Positions 3,485-63,647 of a DNA stretch of 64,000 nt are shown here, one piece after another. Under the pieces are notes generated by a model, which had not been told where the DNA came from, made no database searches, and saw nothing but the letters and a program-made list of their open reading frames with translations. The DNA is from an uncultured Syntrophomonadaceae bacterium. GTDB taxonomy: Bacteria > Bacillota > Dethiobacteria > DTU022. The stretch is taken from assembly GCA_964441025.1 (NCBI GenBank), contig CAYTXG010000003.1:63527-127526 (forward strand), given 5' to 3'. The position numbers were made by a program, and so were the translations under genes. Position 1 is the first letter of the stretch; each line of letters begins with the position of its first letter.

Positions 3485-4696
3485 TCAATCCCGCATAAAA
3501 AAGATGTAGTAGGTGCGGGCCAGGGCCTCGGCAAGGTAAGGGAGGGAGCGCAGCGCCTCATCAATACTGTTTTCATGGCCGCCCACTTCGATCAGCAGAG
3601 CACAGGGGTGCAGGTCCTGGTTATAGGTAAAATTTCGCTCATAAAGGCCTCTGGAAAGGCCCGGTAAAACTGCCTCCAGTTCTTTATCCAGGACCAGGGC
3701 CAGCCGCAGGTTTTCCTGGTACAGGGGGTTATGGCTGCCGACAACGAGGAGGATCGCTGCATAGTCCTCCCCCCCCAGCCTGGCTGTGGTCTTGTCCCTG
3801 GCGACGCCGTCGCGGTGCAAATCGATGATCATCTTGATCCCGCTGTTGCCGGCAAGTTTCCCCTCGATCACCGGTCGGATCTTGCTGTAGGAATAACTCC
3901 GCGGCTGATCATAAACACCGCAATGGTGGAGCACCTGCAGACCGTAGTTTTCCTCGAGCAGCCTCACCAGCTTTTCGCCAACGGTGACAACAGTACCGCC
4001 TGATGAAGCGGGATCCCCGGAAGAGACAATAAAAGCCTCGCTGGCGTGAGTGTGAAAAAGTAAAATCGGTGCGTCTCCGTAATCCGGAATCGGAAAGGGA
4101 AAGAGCGAGCCTCCCCAGGGGGGGGCAGCCGGATCAGCAGGCTGAACCGGTAAGTCCGGCTCACTGCCGCCCGGTGCATCGGCGGAGGGCGAGCACTGCA
4201 CCGGCAGGGAAACCCGGGGGGCCCCCCCAAGCTCAAGCTCCAGAACAGTGCAGGGATCGCGGGGATCAATGCCCGTCAGGAAGCGCACCATCACGCAGAT
4301 AGACCCGTAAATCTGCCCGTCACCGGAAAAGGGGGGCGGCTCGAGACCCGGTATTTCATATCCCAGAATCTGCTGTAAAAAACGGGAGTACGGACTATCC
4401 GCACTCCGCCACCCGGGCTCACGCTTATCGCCCGGCTCAGGAGAGCCCGGCGCCTGCTGAAGAACCGGAGGCCGGATCAAACCGCAGTAGCTAAGCAGAA
4501 GCAGGAGCAGAAGCAGCGTCGCGGCGGCAACGATCTTCTGTCGCCGCGACAGTGTTGGGACAGCTTTCTGCCTGCGCTTGCTTCTCCTTCCGACAAAAAC
4601 ATAGGCCCCACCCCGGCTTTTTCGCCCGGGGGTGCCCCGCCGGTCCGGCGGGCTCGTCCGTCCCGGCCTCCCTGTGATTGTTTTACGATTCAACAA
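3485..4696 (-). CDS. spoIIP: Stage II sporulation protein P (SpoIIP), TTG start
   Basis: Motifs FHTHASEAF and IDLHRDG, and a C-terminal MurNAc-amidase-like domain. Poly-Leu transmembrane segment. GGAGGAG RBS then TTG. Neighbours hrcA as in Bacillus. Confidence 0.8.
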   Translation of the reverse strand: MLNRKTITGRPGRTSPPDRRGTPGRKSRGGAYVFVGRRSKRRQKAVPTLSRRQKIVAAATLLLLLLLLSYCGLIRPPVLQQAPGSPEPGDKREPGWRSADSPYSRFLQQILGYEIPGLEPPPFSGDGQIYGSICVMVRFLTGIDPRDPCTVLELELGGAPRVSLPVQCSPSADAPGGSEPDLPVQPADPAAPPWGGSLFPFPIPDYGDAPILLFHTHASEAFIVSSGDPASSGGTVVTVGEKLVRLLEENYGLQVLHHCGVYDQPRSYSYSKIRPVIEGKLAGNSGIKMIIDLHRDGVARDKTTARLGGEDYAAILLVVGSHNPLYQENLRLALVLDKELEAVLPGLSRGLYERNFTYNQDLHPCALLIEVGGHENSIDEALRSLPYLAEALARTYYIFFMRD

Positions 4697-7154: not shown

Positions 7155-9077
7155 ATGCCTGACAACGTAGCGGTAAAAATACTGAAAGAACACCTTGTTA
7201 GCGGCCGGCTGCGGCAGGGAGAGGAGATCGCCATCCGCATCGACCAGACGCTGACGCAGGATGCCACCGGCACCATGGCCTGTCTACAGTTTGAAGCGCT
7301 GGGCAGATCGCGGGTCAGCACCGAACTCTCAGTAAGCTACATTGATCACAACACCATCCAGGGCAGCTTCGAAAACGCCGATGACCACCGTTACCTGCAA
7401 TCAACGGCAGCCCGCTACGGAATCCACTTTTCCCGCCCCGGCAATGGGATCTGCCACCAGGTTCACCTGGAGCGCTTTGGCATTCCGGGGAAAACCCTTC
7501 TCGGCTCGGACAGCCATACACCCACGGGGGGCGGCCTGGGTATGCTGGCCATCGGTGCTGGAGGGCTGGATATAGCGGTAGCCATGGCCGGCTCCCCTTA
7601 CTATCTGAACATGCCGGGAGTGCTCCGGGTAAAACTCATGGGAGCGCTGCCTCCCTGGTGCGGAGCCAAGGATGTAATCCTGGAGCTGCTCCGCCGCCTC
7701 ACCGTTAAGGGAGGTGTGGGCCGGATTATCGAGTACGGCGGCCCGGGTGCAGCCCTGCTGACGGTCCCCCAGCGGGCCACGATCACCAATATGGGCGCCG
7801 AACTGGGAGCAACCTCCTCCATATTCCCCAGCGATGAGCAAACCCGAAGTTTTCTTTCCTCCCAGGGGCGAGGGGGGGCCTGGAGAGAGCTGCAGGCTGA
7901 TCCGGACGCCCTTTATGACGATGAGATCACCCTTGAGCTGGACAAACTTGAGCCGCTGGCAGCCTGCCCGCACAGCCCCGATGCAGTCAAATCCCTCCGC
8001 GAAATTGGCCCCCTCCCTGTGGACCAGGTCGCCATCGGCAGCTGCACAAATTCCTCTTTTCAGGATCTGCTCCTCGTTGCGGAGATGCTGGAGGGTAAAA
8101 CCGTCCACAGGCGCGTCAGCCTGGTGATCGCGCCCGGTTCGCGCCAGGTTTTATTGATGCTGGCGCGCAGTGGAGCCCTTGAGAAGCTGATTGCCGCGGG
8201 GGCAAGGGTTCTCGAACCGGCCTGCGGCCCCTGCATCGGGATGGGACAGGCCCCTCCCTCGGGCTCCCTGTCGGTGCGCACATTCAACAGAAATTTTCAG
8301 GGGCGCTGCGGCACGGCAGATGCATCGGTTTATCTCACCGGCCCGGCGGCGGCGGCAGCGGCAGCCCTGCGCGGCTGCCTCACCGATCCCCGGGCACTGG
8401 GAGAACCTCCGGAGCTGCCTGAGGCGCCGCCGCCCATAATAGATGATAATATGATCATCAGCCCGCCTGAAAACAGCGGCAAAGTGGAGATTGTCCGCGG
8501 CCCCAATATCAAGCCTCTGCCCCTGAACAACCCCCTGACAGGCGATCTATCCATGACCCTCCTGCTGAAGACAGGGGATCATGTTACCACCGATCAGATC
8601 ATGCCCGCCGGGGCCGGGGTTTTACCTTTGCGCTCAAATATTCCGGCGATAAGCGAGTATGTTTTTGCGCCCCTTGATCAGAGTTTCTCCCGGCGGGCCC
8701 GGAAAGCCGGCAGCGGGCTCGTTGTCGGCGGAGAGAATTACGGCCAGGGCTCGAGCCGGGAGCATGCCGCTCTGGCGCCCATGTATCTCGGAGTAAAGGC
8801 GGTCCTGGCGAAGTCTTTTGCCCGGATCCACCATACCAACCTGGTCAATTTTGGGATCATCCCCCTGATTTTTCAATCCCCGGCCGACTATGATCTGCTG
8901 CAGCAGGATGATTGCCTGGTAATCAAAAACGTGCATGAACAGCTGGCCGGGGGGAGCATCACCATCACCAACTGCACCCGGGGCTGCTCTTTTACGGTAA
9001 GGCATGAACTCTCGCCGCGCCAGCTCGGGATAATCAAGGCGGGCGGGCTCTTATTGGAGGTTGGAGGTCGGAAGTAG
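7155..9077 (+). CDS. Aconitate hydratase (640-aa 'putative/Aquifex-type' aconitase family)
   Basis: N-terminus KILKEHLVSG...IDQTLTQDATGTMA. Cluster ligand region LGSDSHTPTGGGLGMLAIG and CGPCIGMG. C-terminal swivel domain GENYGQGSSREHAA. Confidence 0.85.
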   Translation: MPDNVAVKILKEHLVSGRLRQGEEIAIRIDQTLTQDATGTMACLQFEALGRSRVSTELSVSYIDHNTIQGSFENADDHRYLQSTAARYGIHFSRPGNGICHQVHLERFGIPGKTLLGSDSHTPTGGGLGMLAIGAGGLDIAVAMAGSPYYLNMPGVLRVKLMGALPPWCGAKDVILELLRRLTVKGGVGRIIEYGGPGAALLTVPQRATITNMGAELGATSSIFPSDEQTRSFLSSQGRGGAWRELQADPDALYDDEITLELDKLEPLAACPHSPDAVKSLREIGPLPVDQVAIGSCTNSSFQDLLLVAEMLEGKTVHRRVSLVIAPGSRQVLLMLARSGALEKLIAAGARVLEPACGPCIGMGQAPPSGSLSVRTFNRNFQGRCGTADASVYLTGPAAAAAAALRGCLTDPRALGEPPELPEAPPPIIDDNMIISPPENSGKVEIVRGPNIKPLPLNNPLTGDLSMTLLLKTGDHVTTDQIMPAGAGVLPLRSNIPAISEYVFAPLDQSFSRRARKAGSGLVVGGENYGQGSSREHAALAPMYLGVKAVLAKSFARIHHTNLVNFGIIPLIFQSPADYDLLQQDDCLVIKNVHEQLAGGSITITNCTRGCSFTVRHELSPRQLGIIKAGGLLLEVGGRK

Positions 9078-12001: not shown

Positions 12002-12454
12002 TCACCTCCGGGAATATACTCCTTCATCACCTGCAGCCATTCTATCATAAACTTTTTGCAGCGGCATAGATCCGCTGTTAACAATCCCCGGCACCGGCAC
12101 CGCCTCGGCAACCAGTTTCAGCAAGTCTTTTACATTGAAAGGTTTTTCCAGAACGCCTACTATATTTTCTTCCGCTTCAACCCGATCTGCAATTGCTTCC
12201 TTGTAACCTGTGACAAAAAGAATTTTCACATCATTATGATCCTGCCGGATCATCCGGGCTACTTCGAAACCATTCACCGCACCAAGTTTTATATCAATAA
12301 TTGCCAGGCGGGGACGGTAGCGGCTCACAGCACTGATTCCCCTCGCTGCATCACCGGCCACATCGCAGCTATAGTTACACATGGCCAGAACCTGCTGTAG
12401 TATCCAGCGGATGCCTTCATCATCATCAATTACCACTACATCAACGGAATCCAT
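12002..12454 (-). CDS. Single-domain response regulator (CheY/Spo0F-like receiver)
   Basis: 150 aa. VVVIDDDEGIR...AIIDIKLG...LFVTGY...EKPF; the acidic pocket, phospho-Asp, Thr and Lys are all present. No output domain. Confidence 0.8.
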   Translation of the reverse strand: MDSVDVVVIDDDEGIRWILQQVLAMCNYSCDVAGDAARGISAVSRYRPRLAIIDIKLGAVNGFEVARMIRQDHNDVKILFVTGYKEAIADRVEAEENIVGVLEKPFNVKDLLKLVAEAVPVPGIVNSGSMPLQKVYDRMAAGDEGVYSRR

Positions 12455-12500
12455 CCTTTCATCCCTTTCTCTTTATATTGATCCTCCAAACAGGCTCGTG

Positions 12501-14522
12501 TTACGTTATATTATCGCAGACCGGCAGTGCCAGGTTGACCGTTGTCCCTTTGCCCACCCCGCTCACTATATCCAGATCTCCTCCCATCATTCTCACAATT
12601 GTTGAAGAGATGTAGAGGCCCAGCCCGGTGCCGCCGGGCTTTGTCGTAAAAAACGGCCTGGTTAACATCTCCATATTTTCAGCGGGAATCCCCGGCCCGT
12701 TATCCTTCAGGATAACATGGACCCGGCCATTTCTCAGAGAAGTGGATATTTCCAGTTCGCCCCCTTCCCTCAGCGCTTCAATGGCGTTGCGGGCAATATT
12801 GAGCAGCACCTGCTTGATGCTGTCGGGAGAACCGAGTACCTCCGGCATCTTCCCCGGGCAGAGATTGATCTTAAGATCTATTTCGTTTAGCAAAGCTTCA
12901 CTGTTCAGCAAAAAGGATAATTCATGGATAATATCATTTAAATTTACCTTTTCCAGTCTTTTTTCCGGCTGGGGCTTGGTGATATCCAAAAAATTTGTAA
13001 GTATAGCACCCATCCGGTCCATTTCGCACTCCAGCTTAAGCAGCAGTTCCTCCTGCTTGACGGGATCTTCAAAAATTCTGATCAGCTGAATAGCCGCCTT
13101 TGCCGTAGCCAGGGGGTTGCGAATTTCATGGGCCAACCCGGCGGCGACCTCCCCTGCTTTGGCCAGCCTTTCCCAATCCTGGATTTCATGATGGATTTTT
13201 ACCCGTTCGTTTATATCGCTGAACAGCAGAACAGCGCCGGCGCTGCCGCCATCTTCGCGCAACAGGGGAACAACCTCCCAGCACAGATAGCCCTGTGAAC
13301 CCCCGCCGGCCGGGGCGGAACATTCCTGCATAGAACTACCGTTGTTTCCGGCAGCAATGCAGACGGCCTCTTCAATTTGATGGTCCAGATTGCAGCAGCC
13401 GATCGGCATACCTGCCTTGGGAATCGTCCTGTCCAAACCGTTGAAGAATGTTTTTGCCGCGTGGTTCATCAAGAAAATGATGCCCTTGCTGTCGACGACA
13501 ACAATGCCCTGCTCGATGGAGTTAAAAATTTTTCCCCAGCGATATTGAAATACTCTTGACAGCAGTGAAACTTTCAGGGCAAGGGCGGCCTTTTCAGCCA
13601 GAGCAAGAAGCGCCTGCCGGAAAGGGCCGCCTTCTGCGCTGATGAGGCCCAGGTAGACGGAGGCGGCGCCGCTCCTGCAGTGAAGCCCTTCAAATGTCGA
13701 GGCGTATTCCTTTTCGACCCTCTCTTGAACCAGTCCGCCAAAAATATGGACCGGATCTTTCAGCCTCCCCAGCGATTTCCAATCATCTGCTAGAGCTGTC
13801 ATGATCCGGTGCCCTTCACCACAGCTGAGAGTTAGCATCCGGCCCGGATGCTCATAACTGAAGACAAAAGCGCCCCCGTCCCCGGCAAAAGCCGCCAGGA
13901 AACAGGCTATGAGTTTCAGGACGGCTTCCAGATCAAAATATCCGGGATCAAAAGTCAGCGCTATAAGCTCGTTAACCAAAGCAACGGCCGGCAGAAGCGC
14001 AACCAGGCCCGGTTCACTGCAGCAGCGGTACAGCGCGGAGTGCAGACTGACGATCCGGGCAAGACGCTCCTTTATCTCCCTCCGGGCCGCCGGCGTCATA
14101 TGAACGCTTAAAGGGCTGCGCCTGGGGTCCTTCAGCCCCTCCGCCCCTTTTAAATAATCCTCCGGGTGTTTCGGTTTCCGCCCCTCGGAGCGGTATCCCA
14201 GAAGCAGAAAGGAACCGTTTTCGAGCCTGGCCGTGCTCACAACCATCCCGAAGGGATCAACCAGCAATTGACCTTTTCCAAGATCAGTATGCACCTGGGG
14301 GATACGTCTGTAGAAATCTTCATAAGCCGCCATCAGTGGAGGATGACCGCCCTGCCCGATGGCAGAACAGGGGGGATTATAAAGAGAAAGCAACCGTCCG
14401 CGCCGATCAATCGTGGCAATGCTCATCTTCAACACACATGCCAGGGCTTCCCAAAAATCATGCCATGGGGGCGTATGCCCTTCCTCCGGTTTACCGGACA
14501 TGCAGTAAAACTTTATAATCAT
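12501..14522 (-). CDS. Soluble PAS/GAF sensor histidine kinase
   Basis: H-box HEIRNPLATAKAA. ATPase region DNGPGIP...GGTGLGLYIS. No transmembrane segment. Start ambiguous: ATG at 14522 (MIIKFY, SD only 2 nt away) or GTG at 14579. Confidence 0.8.
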   Translation of the reverse strand: MIIKFYCMSGKPEEGHTPPWHDFWEALACVLKMSIATIDRRGRLLSLYNPPCSAIGQGGHPPLMAAYEDFYRRIPQVHTDLGKGQLLVDPFGMVVSTARLENGSFLLLGYRSEGRKPKHPEDYLKGAEGLKDPRRSPLSVHMTPAARREIKERLARIVSLHSALYRCCSEPGLVALLPAVALVNELIALTFDPGYFDLEAVLKLIACFLAAFAGDGGAFVFSYEHPGRMLTLSCGEGHRIMTALADDWKSLGRLKDPVHIFGGLVQERVEKEYASTFEGLHCRSGAASVYLGLISAEGGPFRQALLALAEKAALALKVSLLSRVFQYRWGKIFNSIEQGIVVVDSKGIIFLMNHAAKTFFNGLDRTIPKAGMPIGCCNLDHQIEEAVCIAAGNNGSSMQECSAPAGGGSQGYLCWEVVPLLREDGGSAGAVLLFSDINERVKIHHEIQDWERLAKAGEVAAGLAHEIRNPLATAKAAIQLIRIFEDPVKQEELLLKLECEMDRMGAILTNFLDITKPQPEKRLEKVNLNDIIHELSFLLNSEALLNEIDLKINLCPGKMPEVLGSPDSIKQVLLNIARNAIEALREGGELEISTSLRNGRVHVILKDNGPGIPAENMEMLTRPFFTTKPGGTGLGLYISSTIVRMMGGDLDIVSGVGKGTTVNLALPVCDNIT

Positions 14523-34186: not shown

Positions 34187-34936
34187 TTAACTTGCGGCGA
34201 GCAGCTCCGTGATATCATGAAGCGCTTTGCTGCATTTTTCCCGGATCACGATCTCGGCGGTGTTGTCAAAATCTGTCGCCGTGAGGTTGATAATGATCAG
34301 CCTTTTCGCCAGCTGCGGCAAGAATGCCACTGGATAAACCACCAGGCTGCTGCCCGCCACCAGCATGAGATCGCACTGGCAGCGCAGGATCTCCTCAGCT
34401 TCGTAAAACAGGGGCGGCATGGGGTCCCCGAAAAGAACAACATCGGGGCGAAGCACATCGAAACAGTTGCGGCAAAGGGGAGGTATTCGTTTCAGTTCAA
34501 CCTGCTGGACCAGCTCCTCAAATGCATAGCGTTTCTTGCAGCCCTGGCAGTAACCGGAACGCAGGTGCCCGTGCACTTCCCAGACCCTGCTCGAGCCGGC
34601 TTTCACATGTAAACCGTCGATATTCTGGGTCACCAGCCCCTTGAGAAAACCCATCTCTTCCATCCTCGCCAGGGCATAATGCCCTTCATGCGGTTCGGCC
34701 AGCGTGATATGGGCGAAGCGGTTAAATGCAGCTTCATAGAAAAGACGGGGATTGTTCTGCAGGACCTCCACCGAAGCTGTTTTGATGGGGTCGATCTTCT
34801 CCCAGATACCCGTTCCGGGGGTTCGGAAATCCGGGATCCCACTTTCCGTGGAAAGCCCGGCACCGGTCAGGCTGTAGAATCCGGCGCTTTCCTTGATCAT
34901 GGCGGCGGCCTTCTCAATCTGAACCTGGTACTCCAT
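34187..34936 (-). CDS. cobB: NAD-dependent protein deacylase (Sir2/CobB)
   Basis: GAGLSTESGIPDFR, VTQNIDGLH, a zinc CxxC...CxxC module and HG. Start set at MEYQ; the track Met has an SD with zero spacing. Confidence 0.85.
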   Translation of the reverse strand: MEYQVQIEKAAAMIKESAGFYSLTGAGLSTESGIPDFRTPGTGIWEKIDPIKTASVEVLQNNPRLFYEAAFNRFAHITLAEPHEGHYALARMEEMGFLKGLVTQNIDGLHVKAGSSRVWEVHGHLRSGYCQGCKKRYAFEELVQQVELKRIPPLCRNCFDVLRPDVVLFGDPMPPLFYEAEEILRCQCDLMLVAGSSLVVYPVAFLPQLAKRLIIINLTATDFDNTAEIVIREKCSKALHDITELLAAS

Positions 34937-35247
34937 TTTTTGCATCCCTCCGTAAACCGCATGGAATCCATTATTTCTACAATATCCAATTATTAATTTA
35001 TTAGTTCTATTCTTGAATCGTCAATTCCTGTTTTTTGACTAAATTTTAGAGGTGTTCTTCCTGTTTGCTGTGTGAAGGTGGTTGCGGATTGATATTCCCG
35101 GCGGGAAAGTAGCGCAGCCCGGGCAAAAGGGGTGAAGCTCCTCTTCCCAGGGCTGCAGCCTGGCGGGCCTGTTGTATGCCGGGCCCCCCATTGAGAGAGC
35201 CCGCACTTGCGCTGCTGCCGGTTCCTTGATCCCTTTGCGCCCCCGGC

Positions 35248-53293: not shown

Positions 53294-53539
53294 CAGCCTT
53301 CCCCCCTTCGCTCTCTAAATATTGTATTTATTACTTCTTCTTACGGGGGACAACTCCTCTTCAATCAGCATGTACCTTCCCCGCGCCTGCTGAAAAAACG
53401 CTTATGAAACAGGGGCGGTTATTGGCAGGATATTTGGCCCGGGTATCCAATTAAATGGTGGGGTGAGGAGACAACATCCAGAAAGACATGCTTTTAAAGC
53501 CCGTACCCCGAATTCCAAGACCGGCAGGGGTGATTTTTG

Positions 53540-54556
53540 ATGAAACTTGAGGGCAACTGTTTGACTACCGCCATGGGAATCATGCCGCACCTGGAGGTGG
53601 AAAGAGCGCTCCAGCTATCACTTTCTCTTGATATTCCCTTCTGGCCCCAGCTTCCAGGCGTCAGTTTTTTTGAGGATATGTATGCGCAGGCATCAGAGCA
53701 TTTTCCGGGGATATCGCTTGATCTGGAGCGGCGGGAGATTCGTTTCGCCCTTGAACTGTTTCACAGGGAGCTGGAGGAGTACCTGCTTCACTGGGAAGAT
53801 GAGGCCTATTTTCGGCTTTCCCCCGGCTACAGCGCCGTGTACCATAGCTTCTTGAAAAAAGATCTGGCTGCCTATCCTTACATCCGCGGCCAGAGCATCG
53901 GCCCGGTCAGTTTCGGCATGAAGATCCAGGACAGTGAAAGGCGCCCCATGATCTATTTCGATGAGGTTCGCGAGATCATTTTCGATTTTTTTGCCCGGAA
54001 ACTGCAAGCCCAGTACCATGAACTGCAGCAGGTACATCCCCGGGCCTTTGTCTGGGTCGATGAGCCGGGGCTGGAGATGCTGTTTATGTCCTATACCGGC
54101 TATACCAGCGAGAAGGCTTTGGCCGACTACCGCCTTTTTTTGGACAACTTTCCCGGCCCAAGGGGGGTTCACCTCTGCGGAAACCCCGACTGGTCCTTCC
54201 TACTAAACCTGGATCTCGATATTCTTTCCCTGGATGTACTCTCCCACGGCTACATCTTTTCACGCTACCGTGAGGAAATCAGATCTTTTCTGGACAGGGG
54301 GGCCATTATCTCCTGGGGGATCACCCCTACCCTGACGGAAGAATACCTTCAGGAAGATCTGCAGTCGATGATCAAAAGAATAGAAGAGCTCTGGCAGCAC
54401 CTGGAGAAGGACGGAATACCCCGGGAGCAGATACTCAGGCAGGCCTGGTTCGCCCCGTCCCGCTGCTGCCTGATCAACCCGGACCGGGAGGTCACTGTGG
54501 AGCGCTCTTTCAGAATGTTGAAAAAGGTGGCCTCGCACTTTAAAGAAAAACTTTGA
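53540..54556 (+). CDS. MetE C-terminal-domain-like / URO-D-like TIM-barrel protein (cobalamin-independent methionine-synthase-II-like family)
   Basis: VWVDEPGLEML (compare MetE IQIDEPAL). VHLCGN (His-x-Cys zinc ligands). C-terminal CCLINPD. Confidence 0.5.
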   Translation: MKLEGNCLTTAMGIMPHLEVERALQLSLSLDIPFWPQLPGVSFFEDMYAQASEHFPGISLDLERREIRFALELFHRELEEYLLHWEDEAYFRLSPGYSAVYHSFLKKDLAAYPYIRGQSIGPVSFGMKIQDSERRPMIYFDEVREIIFDFFARKLQAQYHELQQVHPRAFVWVDEPGLEMLFMSYTGYTSEKALADYRLFLDNFPGPRGVHLCGNPDWSFLLNLDLDILSLDVLSHGYIFSRYREEIRSFLDRGAIISWGITPTLTEEYLQEDLQSMIKRIEELWQHLEKDGIPREQILRQAWFAPSRCCLINPDREVTVERSFRMLKKVASHFKEKL

Positions 54557-56424: not shown

Positions 56425-56473
56425 GGCTGCAGCGGGGCAGTGCGGGCAGCTCTACACCGGAAACGAATTGCGG

Positions 56474-57727
56474 CTAAGTCTGCCGCCCCGCAGCCTTGCG
56501 GGCGTAACGGGTCAGATAGATATGGCGCATCCACAGGGCTTTTGCAGGAGCAATCGGCCTAGCGCCGCCGAACAGGGCAGTGCCGATAACCGCCCGGCAG
56601 CCTTTATCAAGAACCTGGACCGCCGCCGCGGCATCGCTTTTTGAGGGGCCGCAGCAGAGGACGCCGCTGCCTTCGATCATGACAGCGCTCCGGCCTCGCA
56701 TTTTTCCGGCGATTAATCCGGCGGCCGCAGGCAGGGGGATATCTGCTGCCGTCCGAACGCTGACACCAACAATTTGTGCAAAGTCATCGAGCAGCGGATA
56801 CACAGTTTGTCCCGTCTGCGAGAGGGCGAGAATGTCCGGCGAAAAAGCATGGGTAACAGCCCCAATGTCCTTGAACCTGCAGTAGAGCAGGCGGTGGATT
56901 TCACTCTCCGGCGGTGCGGCGGTTCTCCCCGGGGATCTTCCCAGGCTGATCCTGATCGAACCACTTTCGCTATCGGGAAAACATCCGTCGGGGCCGACCC
57001 CGGGATAGAGCACAAAGTGATCTCCCTTCCTCTCGCTGCGGTAAAAAAACCGCCTGGCAGATTCCCTCACCAGGCCCCCCTCCGGAGAGCACCCGGCCAG
57101 GTAGCATGCTCTCAGCCCATCCCAATCGCCCTCTTCTCGCCCGCTCAAATACAGGTAGCGGCGTATTATATAATCGGCACAGATCTGTTCCAGCCTGGCA
57201 GCCAGGCTGAAAGCCTCACCGCTGTCTGCCCCCAGGCAGAGCGCCCCGTGGTTGGCCATCAGCAAGGCCTTGCCCTCCGAACGATTGAGCGCAGCTACAA
57301 CGTTTCTTTTCAATTTACCTGTCCCGGGCAGCCCATAAGCGGCGCATGGGATCGTGGAGTCGCCTGCTATTGAAACTGCCCCGGCATCGGCCATCTCTAT
57401 ATCCCGGTGGAGAGCGCTGACCACGGAGGCAAATACCTGGTGGGTATGGACAATAAAGTTGATCCCGGGCCGCCGCCTGTAAATCGCGGCATGTATACCT
57501 TTTTCAGTGGAGGGCTCTATCCCGCCGTCGTAACTGCCGTCGGCAATATTAACCGTAACAATTTCCGCAGGGGTCAAAGCCTCATAGGGCCTGCCGCTGG
57601 GTGTGATCACAAAAAAGTCCCCATCAAGGCGGGCGCTCACATTGCCCCAGGTGCGGGAGATGAGCCCGGAGCCGATCAGCCGCCGTCCCGCCTGAATCAC
57701 ATCTTCCCTGGCCTGCTGCAATTTCAC
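56474..57727 (-). CDS. Tandem class II aldolase/adducin-domain protein (two MtnB/FucA-like domains)
   Basis: Domain 1: SRTWGNVSARL...EKGIHAAIYRRRPGINFIVHTHQ. Domain 2: ESEIHRLLYCRFKDIGAVTHAFSP. GTG start abutting the macro gene stop. Confidence 0.75.
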   Translation of the reverse strand: MKLQQAREDVIQAGRRLIGSGLISRTWGNVSARLDGDFFVITPSGRPYEALTPAEIVTVNIADGSYDGGIEPSTEKGIHAAIYRRRPGINFIVHTHQVFASVVSALHRDIEMADAGAVSIAGDSTIPCAAYGLPGTGKLKRNVVAALNRSEGKALLMANHGALCLGADSGEAFSLAARLEQICADYIIRRYLYLSGREEGDWDGLRACYLAGCSPEGGLVRESARRFFYRSERKGDHFVLYPGVGPDGCFPDSESGSIRISLGRSPGRTAAPPESEIHRLLYCRFKDIGAVTHAFSPDILALSQTGQTVYPLLDDFAQIVGVSVRTAADIPLPAAAGLIAGKMRGRSAVMIEGSGVLCCGPSKSDAAAAVQVLDKGCRAVIGTALFGGARPIAPAKALWMRHIYLTRYARKAAGRQT

Positions 57728-58267
57728 TTATTCCGCCCCGGGCAGCTTTTCAAGCGCTTCCCGGTGTACGGCCAGGTCACTTTCGCTGAACAGGACAAAG
57801 CGAACGGTCTGCACATGTTTAAGTAGAGGCGCAGTTTCAGCAATAGCGCTGCAGGCCACCGCTGCAGCCTCCTTCACGGGGTAACCAAATATACCGGTGG
57901 AAATAGCCGGGAAGCCCACCGATGACAGCTCATTCTCATCTGCCAGCCGCAGGGCGTTGCGGTAGCAGTTGGCCAGCAGTTTGGCTTCGGGCTTATCCCG
58001 GCCGTAAACAGGCCCCAGGCAGTGAATCACGTGGCTGTTGGGCAGCTTATGCCCGCCGCTGATCACAGCTTCGCCGGGCTTGATGGGAGCCAGCGGGCGG
58101 CATTCCGCCTCCAGTCCAGGCCCTGCAGCCCGGTGGATCGCCCCGGCCACACCGCCCCCGCTCCTCAGCCGGGCATTGGCGGCATTTACAATTGCATCAA
58201 GGTCGGGTTGCTCCACAATGTTGCCCCGGACGCACTCAATCACGACACCGGATACTCTCTTTTTCAT
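57728..58267 (-). CDS. Macro-domain protein (ADP-ribose / O-acetyl-ADP-ribose processing, YmdB-like)
   Basis: VNAANARLRSGGGVAGAIHRAAG...GFPAISTGIFGYP. AGGAG RBS before the internal ATG. The track's 260-aa form is over-extended. Confidence 0.75.
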   Translation of the reverse strand: MKKRVSGVVIECVRGNIVEQPDLDAIVNAANARLRSGGGVAGAIHRAAGPGLEAECRPLAPIKPGEAVISGGHKLPNSHVIHCLGPVYGRDKPEAKLLANCYRNALRLADENELSSVGFPAISTGIFGYPVKEAAAVACSAIAETAPLLKHVQTVRFVLFSESDLAVHREALEKLPGAE

Positions 58268-59015
58268 CTGCATCACTCCTGGTTTCAGGTGATATTGAAA
58301 CCGGCTCTCCGCCGATAAGACCGCATCCTTCAGGATCACAAAATATGTGTTCACGGCTTTTTTTTTCAAACGTTTCGCATTTGAGCAGCTCATAATAATC
58401 ATCCCACCGCCGGAAAGGAATTTCCGCGCAGGTGCAGGCCCGGGCGAGGCTGTCGCGGGCGTAGACACCATCGGCATGGGCTGCGGCAAAGCGATCATTG
58501 TCGCCGTCACCCACGTAGATTACCCTGTATCCTTCCTCCCGCAGCCCGATAACATGGGCCGCTTTGCAATTGCCGCAAATTGAGCAGCTCTCATGGGCAT
58601 AGGGCATCAGCACCCTGGCACGCCCCCGGACGAAAAGGGTCCGGTTGCGAAAAATACCGGCAATGTATTCGCTGCATCGGTGCGATTCCAGAACAGGCTC
58701 TATATAGATGCCGAAGCCATCGCTGGCAATGTAAACAGGACGTTTTCGGGATCGGGCAAAGATCAAGAACTCTTTAAAACCGGGCCGCAGGGCCGCTCTG
58801 GCTGCAGCGAATTCCAGCAACCCCTCCTGATGAGCCGGCAGATAAGCAGACATGCGCTCCAGCCACTCTTTCATTCCGAATTCGCCCCGCCTGTAAGCGG
58901 CGCTGCATTCCAGGTAGCGCTCTTTACCAAAATGGCGGGCCAGGTCCGAGGTAATGTCCCTATCCGTTACGGTACCGTCAAAATCGAGAACATAAACAAA
59001 TTTTAATTCCGCCAA
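58236..59015 (-). CDS. HAD-IB phosphatase, MtnX-like (2-hydroxy-3-keto-5-methylthiopentenyl-1-phosphate phosphatase family)
   Basis: LDFDGTVTDRD, Cys cluster CSICGNCK (compare MtnX CGCCKP), VGDGDND. AGGAGGG RBS with TTG start. Confidence 0.65.
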   Translation of the reverse strand: MAELKFVYVLDFDGTVTDRDITSDLARHFGKERYLECSAAYRRGEFGMKEWLERMSAYLPAHQEGLLEFAAARAALRPGFKEFLIFARSRKRPVYIASDGFGIYIEPVLESHRCSEYIAGIFRNRTLFVRGRARVLMPYAHESCSICGNCKAAHVIGLREEGYRVIYVGDGDNDRFAAAHADGVYARDSLARACTCAEIPFRRWDDYYELLKCETFEKKSREHIFCDPEGCGLIGGEPVSISPETRSDADEKESIRCRD

Positions 59016-59179
59016 TAAACATGCACCCTCCTAATATTTTCCTGGCAAGGCACGGGCCTTCCCCCCTACACTATAGTAAATCTTGACGCCTGATTCAAGG
59101 GCGCGGACTGGAAGGGACCCTGGGAAAATGTTATCTACGGGGGATTGACGAAGCAGGCGCAGTCAGGGATACTCAAGGT

Positions 59180-60349
59180 ATGCTCAGATATCCCTTTACA
59201 TTCCCCAAGGTCGGCGGGCGACTGGTCAGGCGGGTAAACCGCTTCGTGGTGGAGGCCGATATTGACGGCCGGCGGGTGCAGGCTTACCTGGCCAATCCCG
59301 GACGGCTGTGGGAGTTGCTTGTACCGGGCACCGCCCTTCTGCTCAGCCCCTCTCTCTCCAGGGGCAGACTCCCATACACCGTGCTGGCCTGTGAAGCAAA
59401 AAACGGCTCTGTCCTGTTGCACACTCACCTGACCAACACCGTTGTCCGCAGCCTCATTGATGATCAAAGACTCCCCCCCTACAGGAATTACCGGATCATC
59501 AAATCGGAACCGGCAGTGGGCGAACACCGTTTTGATCTGCTTCTGGAACAGAGGCAAAGCGGCAAGCGCTATTACCTGGAGATCAAAAGCGTGACCCTTT
59601 TTGAAAGCCAAACAGCCATGTTCCCAGATGCCGTCACCGCAAGAGGCGCCGCCCATCTCCGCCTGCTAAAAGAGCTGACCGGACAAGGCCTTAATGCCGG
59701 TTGCATCTTTGTGATCATGAACCCGCAGGTAAAATATTTTCTTCCCGCCTATCATGTTGATTACATTTTTGCCCAAACCGTTCTCGATGTGAGAGATTCG
59801 GTGCAGCTGAATGCTGTCGCTCTCGGCTTTGACGCTGCCTTTACCGGGGTGACATCCGTCGAAAAGGCGGAAATCCCCTACAGCTTTCTGGAGAGAGAGC
59901 TGCATGACCGGGGAGCATACCTGCTGCTGCTGTACATGGATGGGCGAAAAGTGATCGCCTTGCCGGACGGAAAGGATCTGGAACTCCAGGAAGGCTGCTA
60001 TGTATATGCCGGCCGGGCGTCAGCAGATCTGATGAGCGAGATGGCCCGCCACAGACGAAAAAAGAAGAAGAAAAGGGCGCCCATCGATTACCTGACTGCT
60101 GCGGCCGATAGGATCACCCCTGTACCGATAATCACCGGCGAGAACCTGGAGCACCAGTTGGTTGCCGGTCTGGAGGAAATGGGCGGCAAAGCTGTGGAAT
60201 GGTCCGGCTCCCCGGGAGCCCAAAACAGCAGCAGGCTATTTTACTTTGCCGCGGATCCCCTGCACAACCGCGCCTTCATTGATCTGATCCTGCATTATCG
60301 AATCGGCAGGCCTGAGCAGAGACTAATAGCCCGAAAGAATGTGCCCTGA
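59180..60349 (+). CDS. sfsA: SfsA nuclease-family protein fused to a C-terminal DUF123 / GIY-YIG-like domain
   Basis: N-terminal ~235 aa: RVNRFVVEADIDGRRVQAYLANPGRL...IFAQT (SfsA). C-terminal ~150 aa: GCYVYAGRASADL...ARHRRKKKKKRAPIDYL (DUF123-like). Confidence 0.7.
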   Translation: MLRYPFTFPKVGGRLVRRVNRFVVEADIDGRRVQAYLANPGRLWELLVPGTALLLSPSLSRGRLPYTVLACEAKNGSVLLHTHLTNTVVRSLIDDQRLPPYRNYRIIKSEPAVGEHRFDLLLEQRQSGKRYYLEIKSVTLFESQTAMFPDAVTARGAAHLRLLKELTGQGLNAGCIFVIMNPQVKYFLPAYHVDYIFAQTVLDVRDSVQLNAVALGFDAAFTGVTSVEKAEIPYSFLERELHDRGAYLLLLYMDGRKVIALPDGKDLELQEGCYVYAGRASADLMSEMARHRRKKKKKRAPIDYLTAAADRITPVPIITGENLEHQLVAGLEEMGGKAVEWSGSPGAQNSSRLFYFAADPLHNRAFIDLILHYRIGRPEQRLIARKNVP

Positions 60350-60508: not shown

Positions 60509-61195
60509 TCAGCTATGTTCCTTCTCTCCAGCCAAAGTCACCGTCCCCGCGGCTGGTTTGAAGTAGAGGGCGCCGCTGGGGCAGGATTCAACGCAAAGGC
60601 CGCATTCATTGCAGCCGGAACGGGCCAGGCTGACATCCTGAAATGTAGTCACCACGCGCCTGATGCCGCGGCGGGAAAAACCAAGGGCGCCTATCTTGGC
60701 CACCTCGCGGCAGATCCAAACGCAGCGACCGCAGAGAAGGCAACGGCTGCGGTCAAACACAAAGGTTCCAGCGCTGTCATCAACATGGGAATCATATTCC
60801 AGCGGCGCCAGGCGATCCAGCTTCATCTTCAAACCTCTTGCCTTTGCAATTTGCAGCAGCGAGCAGCTCTTTCTTCTCGGACAGCTTCCGCATCCAAGGC
60901 GGTGATTGCTCAGAAGCAGCTCAAAGGCGCTTTTCACCAGGCGGTCCACCTGCGGGCTCCGCGTCCGCACGGAAAGGCCCTCTTTGACAGGCAGCGTGCA
61001 GGAGGTAACGGGCTCGTCGCGGCCTTCAACCTGGACATAGCAGAGGCGGCAACTGCCCGAAGGGTGATCCTTCCCTTTAATGGCACAGAGATTGGGAATA
61101 AAGATACCGTTGTCCAGCGCCACCCAGAGCAGCTTCGCTCCTTCGGGAGCGGTGATTTCGCGGCCGTCAATAATAATAGTGACCCCTTTGCTCAT
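60509..61195 (-). CDS. NuoG / HydA / FdhA N-terminal-fragment-like Fe-S protein ([2Fe-2S] + His-ligated [4Fe-4S] + 2x[4Fe-4S]) with no catalytic domain
   Basis: MSKGVTIIIDGREITAPEG...C..C..C. NHRLGCGSCPRRKSC. CLLCGRCVWIC and CNECGLCVESCP. Start ATG overlaps the NuoF-like stop (ATGA). Confidence 0.8.
   Translation of the reverse strand: MSKGVTIIIDGREITAPEGAKLLWVALDNGIFIPNLCAIKGKDHPSGSCRLCYVQVEGRDEPVTSCTLPVKEGLSVRTRSPQVDRLVKSAFELLLSNHRLGCGSCPRRKSCSLLQIAKARGLKMKLDRLAPLEYDSHVDDSAGTFVFDRSRCLLCGRCVWICREVAKIGALGFSRRGIRRVVTTFQDVSLARSGCNECGLCVESCPSGALYFKPAAGTVTLAGEKEHS
60533..60548 (+). repeat. Dispersed repeat CAAAGTCACCGTCCCC (copy 3), inside the 3' end of the Fe-S protein gene
   Basis: Shares the 15-mer CAAAGTCACCGTCCC with the copies at 40.2 kb and 60.47 kb. 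Confidence 0.5.
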
Positions 61196-63111
61196 GAGCC
61201 CTTCCTCTCTTTCTCCGCCAGCAGCCCGGGCGGCGACAGCTTGATCACGGCGTTGTAGTCGGGTGGGCAGGTCTTCAGGCAGTTGTCGCATTTGACGCAC
61301 TTGTCCTGGTCAATGGCTTTAAGGCCGTCATCGCGGGTAAAGACCGCCTCGGTGGGGCAACTGCCCACGCAGACGCTGCAAAGCTTGCTGCACATCTGCG
61401 GTTCAATATAGTAGACAATGAGCTCCTTGCACATGAGCGCCGGGCATCGTTTCTCCCTGATGTGGATCTCGTATTCATCCCGAAAGTAGCGCAGAGTGGT
61501 CAGGACCGGGTTGGGCGCCGTTGCACCCAGGTTGCAGAGAGAACCGGTGCGAACATCTTCGGCCAGCTCCTCCAGAATTTCCAGAGAGCCGGGCTTGCCC
61601 CGGCCTTCTGTAATGTCAGTTAAAATATCAAGCATCTGCTTTGTTCCCAGGCGGCAGAATGTGCACTTGCCACACGATTCCTTCTGGGTAAACTCCAGAA
61701 AATACCGGGCGATAGCCACCATGCAGTCATCCTCGTCGAGAACAACAAGTCCTCCCGAACCCATAATCGCCCCCGCCTCCTGCAACGAATCAAAGTCGAT
61801 GGGTATATCTAGAGCAGACTCGGGGAGGCAGCCCCCGGAAGGGCCGCCGATCTGGGCCGCTTTGAATTTTTTCTCATTGGCCAGCCCCTCACCAACATCG
61901 AAGATCAGCTGGCGGAGGGTTGTCCCCATGGGCACCTCCACCAGCCCGGTATGAGCCACCTTGCCCACCAGGGAGAAGACGGCGGTGCCGGGGCTGTCAT
62001 CGGTGCCGATGCTCCTGAACCAGTGAGCGCCCCGGTTGAGTATGGGCGGGACATAAGCAAAGGTCTTGACATTATTCAGCACCGTGGGCCGGCCGCGGAA
62101 GCCCGACTGGGCCAGGCGTGGCGGGCGTGTTGCCGGGATCCCCATTTTCCCCTCCATGGATCGGACCAGGGCGGATGATTCACCGCAGACAAAAGCCCCC
62201 GAACCCCGAAATATCTCCATCTCGCAGCTAAAAGAGCTGCCCAGGATATGTTCGCCCAGCAGCCCCCTTGCCCGCGCCTGCTCCAGAGCACGGCGGATCC
62301 GGCTTACGGCAAGGGGGTACTCGGCCCGGATATAAAAATAGCACTTCGCCGCACCCACGGTATAGGCGCAAAGAAGCATCCCCTCGATGACCTGGTGAGG
62401 GCAGGACTCAAGAATGCTGCGGTCCATGAAGGCCCCGGGATCACCCTCATCGCCATTGCAGATAACATACTTTTCACCGGGGCCGGCATTAACGGCAGCT
62501 TCCCATTTCAACCCCGTCGGGAAGCCGGCCCCGCCGCGCCCGCGGAGATGCGACTCCTTCACCGTCTCCAGAACCCGGGCCGGATCTGCCGCCAGAGCCG
62601 AAGCCAGGGCGCTGTACCCGCCCCGAGCGATATAATGATCGATATCCCCGGGATCAATAAAGCCGCAGTGCTCAAGAACTATTTTTTGCTCGTAAACGCC
62701 GCGGGGAAAATCGCTGAAAGTGGGAAAAACATCGTTCGCCTCCAGCGCCACCATAGCGAATTCATAGCAGGGATCATCATGGATTAAAAAATCTTCGACC
62801 AGCCGCCCGGCCAGGTCCTCGTCCGCATAACCATAACAGAGGGAGGGGAAACCGGGCTTGGAAATAATCACCAGCGGCTCGGCATAGCAGTGGCCCATGC
62901 AGCCGACCTCGATCACTTTAGCCGCAACGCCCTTTTCTTCAATAATCCCGGTAAAAGCATCTTTTACCTGCACAGCGCCGGCGGCGATGCCGCAGGTAGC
63001 CGTTCCCACGCGGATCACCGGCTCATCATAAAGGGCCTTTTTCGCGGCGGCGGCATCGCGCTCCAGCTTGCCGTATCTTTCGCGGATGGCGGAAAGCTGA
63101 TCCCCCGTCAT
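61192..63111 (-). CDS. NuoF-like NAD(H)-binding flavoprotein subunit (HydB/HndC type, with N-terminal thioredoxin-like [2Fe-2S] and C-terminal 2x[4Fe-4S])
   Basis: 639 aa. GRGGAGFPTGLKW (FMN site), an NADH-binding Gly motif (CNGDEGDPGAF), ESCGKCTFCR, and C-terminal ferredoxin motifs. Confidence 0.9.
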   Translation of the reverse strand: MTGDQLSAIRERYGKLERDAAAAKKALYDEPVIRVGTATCGIAAGAVQVKDAFTGIIEEKGVAAKVIEVGCMGHCYAEPLVIISKPGFPSLCYGYADEDLAGRLVEDFLIHDDPCYEFAMVALEANDVFPTFSDFPRGVYEQKIVLEHCGFIDPGDIDHYIARGGYSALASALAADPARVLETVKESHLRGRGGAGFPTGLKWEAAVNAGPGEKYVICNGDEGDPGAFMDRSILESCPHQVIEGMLLCAYTVGAAKCYFYIRAEYPLAVSRIRRALEQARARGLLGEHILGSSFSCEMEIFRGSGAFVCGESSALVRSMEGKMGIPATRPPRLAQSGFRGRPTVLNNVKTFAYVPPILNRGAHWFRSIGTDDSPGTAVFSLVGKVAHTGLVEVPMGTTLRQLIFDVGEGLANEKKFKAAQIGGPSGGCLPESALDIPIDFDSLQEAGAIMGSGGLVVLDEDDCMVAIARYFLEFTQKESCGKCTFCRLGTKQMLDILTDITEGRGKPGSLEILEELAEDVRTGSLCNLGATAPNPVLTTLRYFRDEYEIHIREKRCPALMCKELIVYYIEPQMCSKLCSVCVGSCPTEAVFTRDDGLKAIDQDKCVKCDNCLKTCPPDYNAVIKLSPPGLLAEKERKGS

Positions 63112-63647
63112 GAGGCTTCCTCCCCTTTTGTTTCCGCCGCCTTCGCTGCCGGCGGCAGGCTTTCCCCCGTTTCAAAGGAAAGCAGGATCCCATCCACCCT
63201 GGTCGGGGTAACCCGCCCTTCCACATCTTCATCGACAACGACAACGGGAGCCATGGTACAGCAGCCCACGCAGGCTACCCTCTCCAGGCTGAATTCGCGA
63301 TCCGGAGTGGTTTCTCCCTCGTTAATTTCAAGACGTCTTTCAAAGCACTCCATGGCAATGCGCCCGCCGACCATGTAACAGGCGGTACCCATGCAGACTT
63401 TCAGCTGATGTTTGCCCGGGGGATTCAGCCGGAATTGATTGTAAAATGTTGCGGGACCATATACTTCAACAGCCGGCATTTCCAGTGCTTCAGCAATCAG
63501 CTCCATGGCCAGGCCCGGCAGATAACCCAGCTCCTCCTGTACCCGTAGCAGTATGGGGATAAGATTTTCGCGTATTCTAACAGAACCCTCCAGCACTCCA
63601 GCCACGCCTGTCCGAATAAGCTCCTCTTCACCTTCGATTAGCGGCAA
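63108..63647 (-). CDS. NuoE-like thioredoxin-fold [2Fe-2S] subunit (HydC/HndA type)
   Basis: CMGTACYMVGG...ACVGCCTMAPVVVVD. TTG start with AAAAGGGGTG RBS. Overlaps the NuoF-like start (ATGA). Confidence 0.85.
   Translation of the reverse strand: MPLIEGEEELIRTGVAGVLEGSVRIRENLIPILLRVQEELGYLPGLAMELIAEALEMPAVEVYGPATFYNQFRLNPPGKHQLKVCMGTACYMVGGRIAMECFERRLEINEGETTPDREFSLERVACVGCCTMAPVVVVDEDVEGRVTPTRVDGILLSFETGESLPPAAKAAETKGEEAS

Follow-up and report, generated by a model that had tools for sequence, protein, structure and literature searches.

The window analysed here, a 64,000-nucleotide stretch of contig CAYTXG010000003.1 from an uncultured Syntrophomonadaceae bacterium, encodes three closely packed genes on the minus strand, for a putative HAD phosphatase, a macro domain protein and a tandem class II aldolase. 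An earlier sequence-only reading had interpreted this cluster as an operon for the salvage of sugar phosphates, ADP-ribose or O-acetyl-ADP-ribose. Comparison with related genomes indicates that a deletion probably brought two separate units together here, so that the cluster would not be a dedicated salvage pathway. The features that bear on this interpretation are, in window positions:

58236–59015, minus strand: HAD gene, encoding a predicted MtnX-like HAD-IB phosphatase of 259 amino acids, with a TTG start
57728–58267, minus strand: macro gene, encoding a MacroD-like protein of 179 amino acids, with an ATG start at 58267
56474–57727, minus strand: tandem class II aldolase gene, encoding 417 amino acids, with a GTG start
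58236–58267, minus strand: overlap of 32 nucleotides between the 3' end of the HAD gene and the 5' end of the macro gene
57728–57742, minus strand: putative deletion scar, the codons CCC GGG GCG GAA TAA that end the macro open reading frame (ORF), from sequence inspection and junction alignments
57158–57727, minus strand: N-terminal class II domain of the aldolase, catalytically complete by its residues
56474–57067, minus strand: linker and degenerate C-terminal class II domain of the aldolase
57515–57517, minus strand: codon GAG for Glu71 of the aldolase; 67 of the 68 homologues linked to an aminotransferase have Lys here

The packing of the three genes agrees with the earlier description. 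The HAD stop codon (58238–58236) lies 32 nucleotides within the macro ORF, whose ATG has a GGAG 8 nucleotides ahead of it, and the macro TAA (57730–57728) directly abuts the aldolase GTG (57727). Both the HAD-macro and the macro-aldolase junction recur in independent assemblies, including one of the same organism that is 100% identical (L011) and those of two related species (L008/L009 and L012), which rules out an assembly artefact as the origin of the junction. Pfam profile searches likewise recovered the three families previously assigned, HAD, Macro and Aldolase_II.

Two arrangements of these genes were found among close relatives. Loci L001, L013, L015 and L172 share the order NuoE-NuoF-Fer2_4-(SfsA)-HAD-Macro-FGGY(−)-TetR(−)-aminotransferase(+)-aldolase-diaminopimelate dehydrogenase (DAPDH)(−), and the window, L008 and L012 have the same order minus the FGGY, TetR and aminotransferase genes. 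Of the six clade members compared, which are species-level relatives, three have a divergent FGGY/TetR/aminotransferase cassette between macro and aldolase. The aldolases of L008 and L012 are 75–80% identical to that of the window, and those of the four cassette-bearing loci 60–64%. In junction alignments against the cassette-bearing genomes, homology extends to the last Leu codon of macro and picks up again at the Shine-Dalgarno sequence and spacer of the aldolase, which read CCGGAGGTGAAAATCA before the GTG in the cassette-bearing genomes and CCCGGGGCGGAATAA before the GTG in the window. The putative scar aligns with this former Shine-Dalgarno/spacer region of the relatives that keep the cassette. 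What remains of the 5' untranslated region of the aldolase now supplies the four C-terminal codons of macro together with its stop codon, which accounts for the TAA/GTG junction. The deletion, ~4.1 kb in size (4.7 kb against L001), begins at the stop codon of macro, ends at the ribosome-binding site of the aldolase and is common to the three species represented by the window, L008 and L012. As all outgroups have the aminotransferase and aldolase genes side by side, a single deletion is the parsimonious reading. The overlap between HAD and macro is derived as well: the HAD gene stops 44–45 nucleotides ahead of the macro start in L013 and L172, and it reads through in the window clade, where HAD residues ~236–259 form a clade-specific tail. 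In L001, the spacers flanking macro and aldolase contain a duplicated ORF-like element of ~100 amino acids and G+C-rich hairpin repeats (GGGGCGGGG...CCCCGCCC; positions 2386–2580, 3501–3800 and the intergenic regions around 7800–7990), which explains why the intergenic regions of this locus are longer.

The origin of the aldolase becomes apparent from its distribution. In protein searches, it belongs to a large family of ~410-amino-acid tandem aldolases with 41–80% identity over 98–100% of their length, whose contexts were surveyed by tblastn in 80 loci, taking one genome per species. Directly upstream of the aldolase, 68 of the 75 distinct homologues with known upstream context have a gene for a class-III pyridoxal phosphate enzyme of ~490 amino acids, which resembles glutamate-1-semialdehyde aminomutase (GSAM; 284 bits against a cut-off of 398 bits) and is 70–89% identical between Clostridia and Paenibacillus. 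In every outgroup, from Paenibacillus to Oscillospiraceae, the two genes are as a rule neighbours, and the hosts include gut Oscillospiraceae and Acutalibacteraceae, digester Firmicutes and Paenibacillus. Divergently upstream of the aminotransferase, ~24 loci encode a TetR regulator and a xylulokinase-like FGGY kinase, and some cassettes also contain a transporter of the MFS superfamily (L046, L090) or an aldehyde dehydrogenase (L062). From its composition, the cassette looks like a catabolic module for an amine-bearing sugar or polyol. Cassette loci comprise L001–L007 and L013–L091 (e.g. L046:8502–14158 and L002:3936–9239), with the pair present twice in L086. No account of an aminotransferase/FGGY/class II aldolase cluster was found in the literature library that we searched.

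Within the flanking sequence available, up to 10 kb on each side, neither HAD nor macro genes were present near the aldolase in the ~75 loci outside the window clade, and the three genes occur together only in the window's own clade. The expectation that the cluster would be conserved as a whole thus failed for the aldolase in the neighbourhood survey. Two observations on the surroundings of other homologues are noted separately. In an uncultured Clostridia lineage, a PNP_UDP_1 (nucleosidase/phosphorylase) gene lies divergently beside an orphan tandem aldolase of the Lys type (L036:1450–2205, minus strand; L038:639–1319, minus strand). Furthermore, ten metagenome contigs (L112, L113, L121, L128, L132, L133, L145, L150, L155 and L158) encode a distant HAD-IB homologue (30–36% identical to the window HAD), followed ~0.1–1.2 kb further on by a class-III aminotransferase-like gene whose product is 22–25% identical to the aminotransferase of the cassette.

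By profile searches, the aldolase matches PF00596 in two stretches (E = 3e-59), which confirms its description as a tandem duplication. The N-terminal domain scores 200 bits, and its residues E75, H94, H96 and H160 correspond to E73, H92, H94 and H155 of FucA. In the C-terminal domain, a diverged copy, one of the three metal-binding His residues is left, and the other two as well as the phosphate-binding motifs are lost. The aldolase missed the cut-offs of all models for specific enzymes (PRK06557, 135 of 251 bits; ribulose-1-phosphate (Ru1P) aldolase, 130 of 300; FucA, 118 of 264; MtnB, 74 of 137), with AraD-like, Ru1P aldolase and FucA models outscoring MtnB; OtnC was also included, and no equivalog was reached.

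The aldolase is under purifying selection. Pairwise ratios of nonsynonymous to synonymous substitution rates (dN/dS) are 0.16–0.22 within the deletion clade, compared to 0.14–0.18 among cassette-bearing relatives and 0.15–0.21 for the adjacent DAPDH gene, and the orphaned enzyme is probably still functional. It retains 63 of 65 near-invariant positions, defined as those at least 97% conserved in aminotransferase-linked homologues, and its deviations from this set cluster around the catalytic PSxE loop. Residue 71, which lies in the KPSSEKG loop of the linked relatives, is Lys in 67 of 68 linked aldolases, Glu in five of seven orphans and Glu in all three aldolases of the deletion clade (window, L008 and L012). 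A neighbour-joining tree, which has no support values and in which the observations are phylogenetically clustered, groups the window subclade together with linked relatives of the Lys type and separates it from a second clade of the Glu type, most of whose members are orphans, and thus implies at least two independent changes from Lys to Glu. A link between Glu71 and the loss of the aminotransferase is suggestive, not proven. The charge reversal next to the phosphate-binding and catalytic loop would most simply be read as a change of substrate.

The HAD protein matches PF06888 (E = 3.5e-14) and PF12710 (E = 1.4e-11; Put_Phosphatase/HAD) and, with 90.2 bits, exceeds the cut-off of 81.55 bits for the MtnX-like HAD-IB subfamily (TIGR01489). 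Its closest solved relative is MtnX of Bacillus subtilis (PDB 2FEA; E = 3.4e-20), with whose Cys cluster C144, C147 and C150 line up, as the sequence-only reading had proposed. Cut-off, motifs and Cys cluster thus identify it as a member of this subfamily; it is not an MtnX equivalog, since it reaches about one third of the respective cut-offs (NF007103, 102.7 of 292 bits; TIGR03333, 87.3 of 303 bits). The alternative assignment as a phosphoserine phosphatase (PSP) was rejected, in line with the earlier proposal, as SerB and PSP scores (22–27 bits) fall far below the MtnX-like ones: the SerB model TIGR00338 gave 26.8 bits against a cut-off of 144, and PSP structures ~22 bits, compared to 76 bits for 2FEA. 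Among 20–22 HAD homologues, C144, C147, C150 and C226 are invariant and H139 and H141 nearly so, which suggests a metal site; D11/D13, S98, K151 and D170/D174 are conserved or invariant.

The macro protein scores 139.6 bits against PF01661 (E = 5.6e-41) and 180.4 bits against the equivalog model NF001664, narrowly under its 200-bit cut-off. Of the Asn/Asp/Tyr catalytic triad defined for MacroD-type enzymes (PMC5413906), it has the Asn (NAAN), but the canonical Asp is an Ala (GGGVAGAIH) and the loop Tyr a Phe (GIFGYP). The best PDB match is the D40A mutant of Oceanobacillus MacroD (OiMacroD; 5LCC), as the window protein naturally has Ala at this position. Since OiMacroD D40A retains ~14% of its kcat/Km (PMC5413906), activity of the window protein is plausible, though it would not be canonical. 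On these family-membership comparisons, none of the three proteins of the cluster could be assigned to a characterised enzyme, and by sequence they are new members or variants of the MtnX-like HAD-IB, MacroD-like and class II aldolase families.

In contrast to the aldolase, the HAD and macro genes form a genuine pair judging from relatives in which they are adjacent, overlapping or fused. In-frame HAD-macro fusions were identified in two proteins (P0133, 427 amino acids; P0135, 421 amino acids) and in a genomic ORF of L015 (417 amino acids). Positional orthologues of the HAD gene, whose products are 40–47% identical, are always located downstream of NuoE-NuoF-Fer2_4. In five homologue groups (L094, L175/176, L177/178, L179/180 and L183/184), the HAD orthologue is directly followed by a sirtuin gene (SIR2), with spacing from a 1-nucleotide overlap to 57 nucleotides. 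The window also encodes a sirtuin:

34187–34945, minus strand: sirtuin (SIR2) gene, whose product is 69% identical to the SIR2 encoded directly after the orthologous HAD elsewhere

This gene keeps the downstream neighbours of the HAD-linked SIR2, a thiamine pyrophosphokinase (TPK) and an NMT1-type ABC transporter, and by identity and synteny it is the orthologue of the latter. In the window lineage, HAD and SIR2 are ~23 kb apart and the slot next to HAD is held by macro. The sirtuin and SfsA had both been cited as supporting context in the sequence-only reading; the sirtuin part gains support from HAD orthologues that precede an orthologue of the window SIR2, and SfsA, being on the opposite strand and variably present, does not contribute. 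In the literature library searched, no account was found of MtnX with macro domains or of a HAD phosphatase with sirtuin or O-acetyl-ADP-ribose. The SIR2-type gene order, which belongs to another Firmicutes lineage (L094, L175–L180 and L183–L184), reads NuoE-NuoF-Fer2_4-(Asn synthase)-(HAD_2 hydrolase)-MtnX-like HAD-SIR2-60-amino-acid ORF-GNAT-CBS-aminotransferase-TPK, and a second, different HAD often directly precedes the MtnX-like one. When metagenomes were scanned with the HAD alignment, most matches were distant HAD-IB proteins (~30% identity) whose surroundings lacked macro and SIR2 genes; only L094 and L095 were informative.

The remaining features surrounding the cluster are:

59070–59098, minus strand: candidate sigma-70-like promoter, TTGAAT-17-TATAGT, from a consensus scan (pattern match only)
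56470–56486, minus strand: weak terminator-like hairpin over the aldolase stop codon, with a poor T tract (pattern match only)
60509–63647, minus strand: NuoE-like, NuoF-like and Fer2_4 (NuoG N-terminal-like) genes, the synteny anchor upstream of HAD
59180–60349, plus strand: SfsA-DUF123 fusion gene, on the strand opposite to the three-gene unit

The candidate promoter is located upstream of HAD in the divergent SfsA(+)/HAD(−) intergenic region, and together with the weak hairpin it is consistent with a single transcription unit. The NuoE/NuoF/Fer2_4 block is kept upstream of HAD in all orthologous loci. SfsA was rejected as a member of the unit, as it is encoded on the opposite strand, present in L008 and L015 and absent from L001 and L172; the SfsA nuclease here has a C-terminal DUF123 domain (389 amino acids), and the same long form occurs in L008 and L015. 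A further terminator-like hairpin followed by seven T residues (GCCTGGTGAGGGAATCTGCCAGGC GGTTTTTTT) lies within the aldolase ORF, in the interdomain linker (57052–57075, minus strand); the number of such matches in the region is within chance expectation. Furthermore, the window contains an ORF of 339 amino acids (53537–54556, plus strand) with no Pfam or NCBIfam match, and at the matching position L008 has a gene for 331 amino acids (12428–13423), likewise without a Pfam match.

Taken together, we propose that the cluster combines two units of separate history. The first three steps of this explanation are shown by comparison of the sequences: HAD and macro form a coherent pair downstream of the NuoE/NuoF/Fer2_4 block, the 417-amino-acid tandem aldolase is the last gene of a separate, widespread cassette in which FGGY and TetR diverge from aminotransferase-aldolase, and the common ancestor of the window, L008 and L012 lost ~4.1 kb. 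With this segment went the genes for the kinase, the regulator and the aminotransferase as well as the promoter that the aldolase had of its own. For its expression the aldolase would now most likely depend on read-through from the HAD-macro transcript and on translational coupling, perhaps with termination-reinitiation at TAAGTG, and it may act on a ketose phosphate other than that of its aminotransferase-linked relatives. The HAD-macro pair itself would probably handle a by-product of NAD-consuming reactions, either protein deacylation or ADP-ribosylation, with macro binding or hydrolysing an ADP-ribose derivative and HAD removing the phosphate from a small phosphorylated product, a role that is drawn from gene fusion and neighbourhood only. 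We consider this explanation as a whole, from the deletion composite and the expression and selection of the aldolase to the role of HAD and macro, to be probable, and the supposed three-enzyme pathway would most probably be a chance product of genome reduction. The earlier proposal of ADP-ribose or O-acetyl-ADP-ribose salvage accordingly survives in part: it is plausible for HAD and macro given the fusions and SIR2 neighbours, but does not extend to the aldolase, which was joined to them by the deletion.

Several observations weigh against parts of this explanation. No trace or fragment of the FGGY kinase, TetR or aminotransferase genes was found in the 64-kb window, which is what the search covered; a kinase and aminotransferase surviving elsewhere in the genome would make the aldolase relocated and not orphaned. 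The promoter and terminator assignments are pattern matches only, the HAD-SIR2 loci have long common synteny and are thus not fully independent observations, and one HAD orthologue (L181) has neither SIR2 nor macro downstream. In addition, a paralogous MtnX-like HAD is encoded in operons of the phosphotransferase system (PTS) and dihydroxyacetone kinase (L092, L185), once with a single-domain class II aldolase, which makes a sugar-phosphate role of the HAD family, and even a partnership of HAD and aldolase, possible. The gene order in L092 (284–6696) is FucA-like aldolase, DhaK, DhaL, zinc alcohol dehydrogenase, enzyme I and HAD, the last gene of a PTS-type operon, and that in L185 (1–5690) is BtpA, ribulose-phosphate 3-epimerase, HPr, enzyme I and HAD, which suggests that this paralogue is a triose- or ketose-phosphate phosphatase. 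L092 and L093 both belong to this paralogous group.

A reversed history, in which HAD-macro-aldolase is ancestral and the FGGY, TetR and aminotransferase genes were inserted in sister lineages, would be compatible with the presence of both arrangements inside one clade and with the neighbour-joining tree, which places the cassette-less subclade as sister to, not nested in, the cassette-bearing relatives. However, the aminotransferase-aldolase adjacency in all outgroups and the match between the additional codons at the 3' end of macro in the cassette-less genomes and the Shine-Dalgarno region of the aldolase in the cassette-bearing ones, which a deletion predicts and an insertion does not, render this polarity highly improbable. 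Given that its promoter, regulator and neighbouring pathway genes were all lost, the aldolase might also be a functionless relic whose decay is still to come. This is very unlikely for an ORF that has stayed intact in three species with all metal and catalytic residues, at a dN/dS equal to that of the neighbouring housekeeping gene DAPDH. Alternatively, the aldolase could have been recruited after the deletion to work with HAD and macro, for example by cleaving or forming a ketose phosphate derived from ADP-ribose or ribose-5-phosphate, which HAD would then dephosphorylate. Three species whose aldolases differ by 20–25% have retained both the exact TAA/GTG junction and the overlap of HAD with macro, the aldolase combines purifying selection with a clade-specific K71E near the active site, and the L092 operon unites a paralogous MtnX-like HAD with a class II aldolase and DhaKL. 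Nevertheless, we regard such a three-enzyme neo-operon as unlikely: K71E also occurs in orphan aldolases with no HAD or macro nearby (L022, L023, L043 and L051), the ~75 aldolase loci outside the clade lack HAD and macro alongside, and sister lineages keep HAD-macro and the aldolase as separate, differently oriented transcription units. Furthermore, no ADP-ribose degradation route is known to require a class II aldolase.

Least credible, and hardly to be entertained, is a variant module for methionine salvage or by-products of S-adenosylmethionine, in which HAD would take the part of MtnX, and the aldolase either that of an MtnB-type dehydratase or that of an aldolase for methylthioribulose-1-phosphate or 5-deoxyribulose-1-phosphate. 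B. subtilis MtnX is indeed nearest to HAD among solved structures, the aldolase has partial MtnB matches (NF006672, 88 bits; TIGR03328, 74 bits), and the orphan aldolase lineage of L036 and L038 adjoins a nucleosidase-like gene of the PNP_UDP_1 family. Yet HAD attains only about a third of the MtnX equivalog cut-offs, the MtnB score (74 against 137 bits) is surpassed by AraD, FucA and Ru1P models, and the aldolase has an aminotransferase as its conserved partner. No MtnK-, MtnA-, MtnW- or MtnD-type domains were detected among the ~45 larger window ORFs scanned, which upholds the absence of MtnW and MtnD noted previously. Similarly, no mtnK, mtnA, mtnB, mtnW or mtnD genes were found around seven HAD homologue proteins (15 loci) or at the metagenome locus L094, nor such domains in the aldolase neighbourhoods examined. 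The sequence-only reading had likewise argued against classical methionine salvage, correctly in light of the equivalog scores and the lack of Mtn genes in the ORFs scanned.

With a deletion as the preferred explanation, the abutting start and stop codons and the tight packing may be a deletion scar and need not signify functional coupling, which matters for annotation, and the three-gene operon does not hold up as a candidate pathway. The locus instead highlights two uncharacterised and fairly widespread gene associations, aminotransferase-tandem aldolase and HAD-sirtuin/macro. Both may merit specialist attention, the former as a widespread cassette and the latter as a recurrent link that includes natural fusions; an ADP-ribose-related function of HAD and macro is plausible from these associations. 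The aldolase may merit it too, as a natural experiment in which an enzyme has outlived its pathway neighbours and a near-invariant residue beside its active site has changed. A bolder pair of proposals, doubtful when taken jointly, would be that loss of the aminotransferase partner repeatedly leads tandem aldolases to change substrate through Lys71 to Glu, and that the MtnX-like HAD-IB proteins of this orthologous group are dedicated partners of NAD-dependent deacylases and macrodomains, catalysing an undescribed phosphatase step by which bacteria dispose of or recycle O-acyl-ADP-ribose, ADP-ribose or related by-products of NAD.

Each protein of the cluster resembles a known system in part. 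The N-terminal domain of the aldolase aligns over its whole length with E. coli FucA and AraD (PF00596; E ~1e-25), sharing the catalytic Glu, three Zn-binding His and the GNVS, TPSG and PSxE phosphate-binding motifs. Unlike these enzymes, the protein carries an active and a degenerate domain on the same chain of ~410 amino acids, a tandem form that was not found among solved structures. It also differs in the usual partner of its family, a GSAM-like aminotransferase. Likewise, HAD aligns over its full length with B. subtilis MtnX (residues 7–213 with 8–214 of 2FEA), including the DxDGT and GDGxND motifs and the Cys cluster C-x2-C-x2-C-K, but has an additional invariant C226 and an HAH motif. 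Its gene lacks a methionine-salvage context, with NuoEF-type genes and macro or SIR2 as neighbours, and some of its relatives are fused to macro. The macro protein shows whole-domain similarity (E = 6.7e-39) to MacroD-type macrodomains (OiMacroD 5L9K/5LCC, E. coli YmdB and human MacroD1/2), which are O-acetyl-ADP-ribose deacetylases and mono-ADP-ribosyl hydrolases, and shares with them the NAAN Asn, the GGG loop and the G-x-F/Y-G-Y-P loop; it differs at the Asp (Ala) and the Tyr (Phe), a combination also found in Af1521-like and viral macrodomains. At the level of gene organization, sirtuin-macrodomain operons are known from Staphylococcus and Streptococcus, where SirTM and MacroD are encoded with GcvH-L and LplA2. 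As in these operons, NAD-consuming and ADP-ribose-processing enzymes are encoded here together with accessory genes. In contrast to them, lipoylation genes are absent, sirtuin and macro do not co-occur but alternate by lineage at the same slot, and the accessory protein is an MtnX-like HAD phosphatase.

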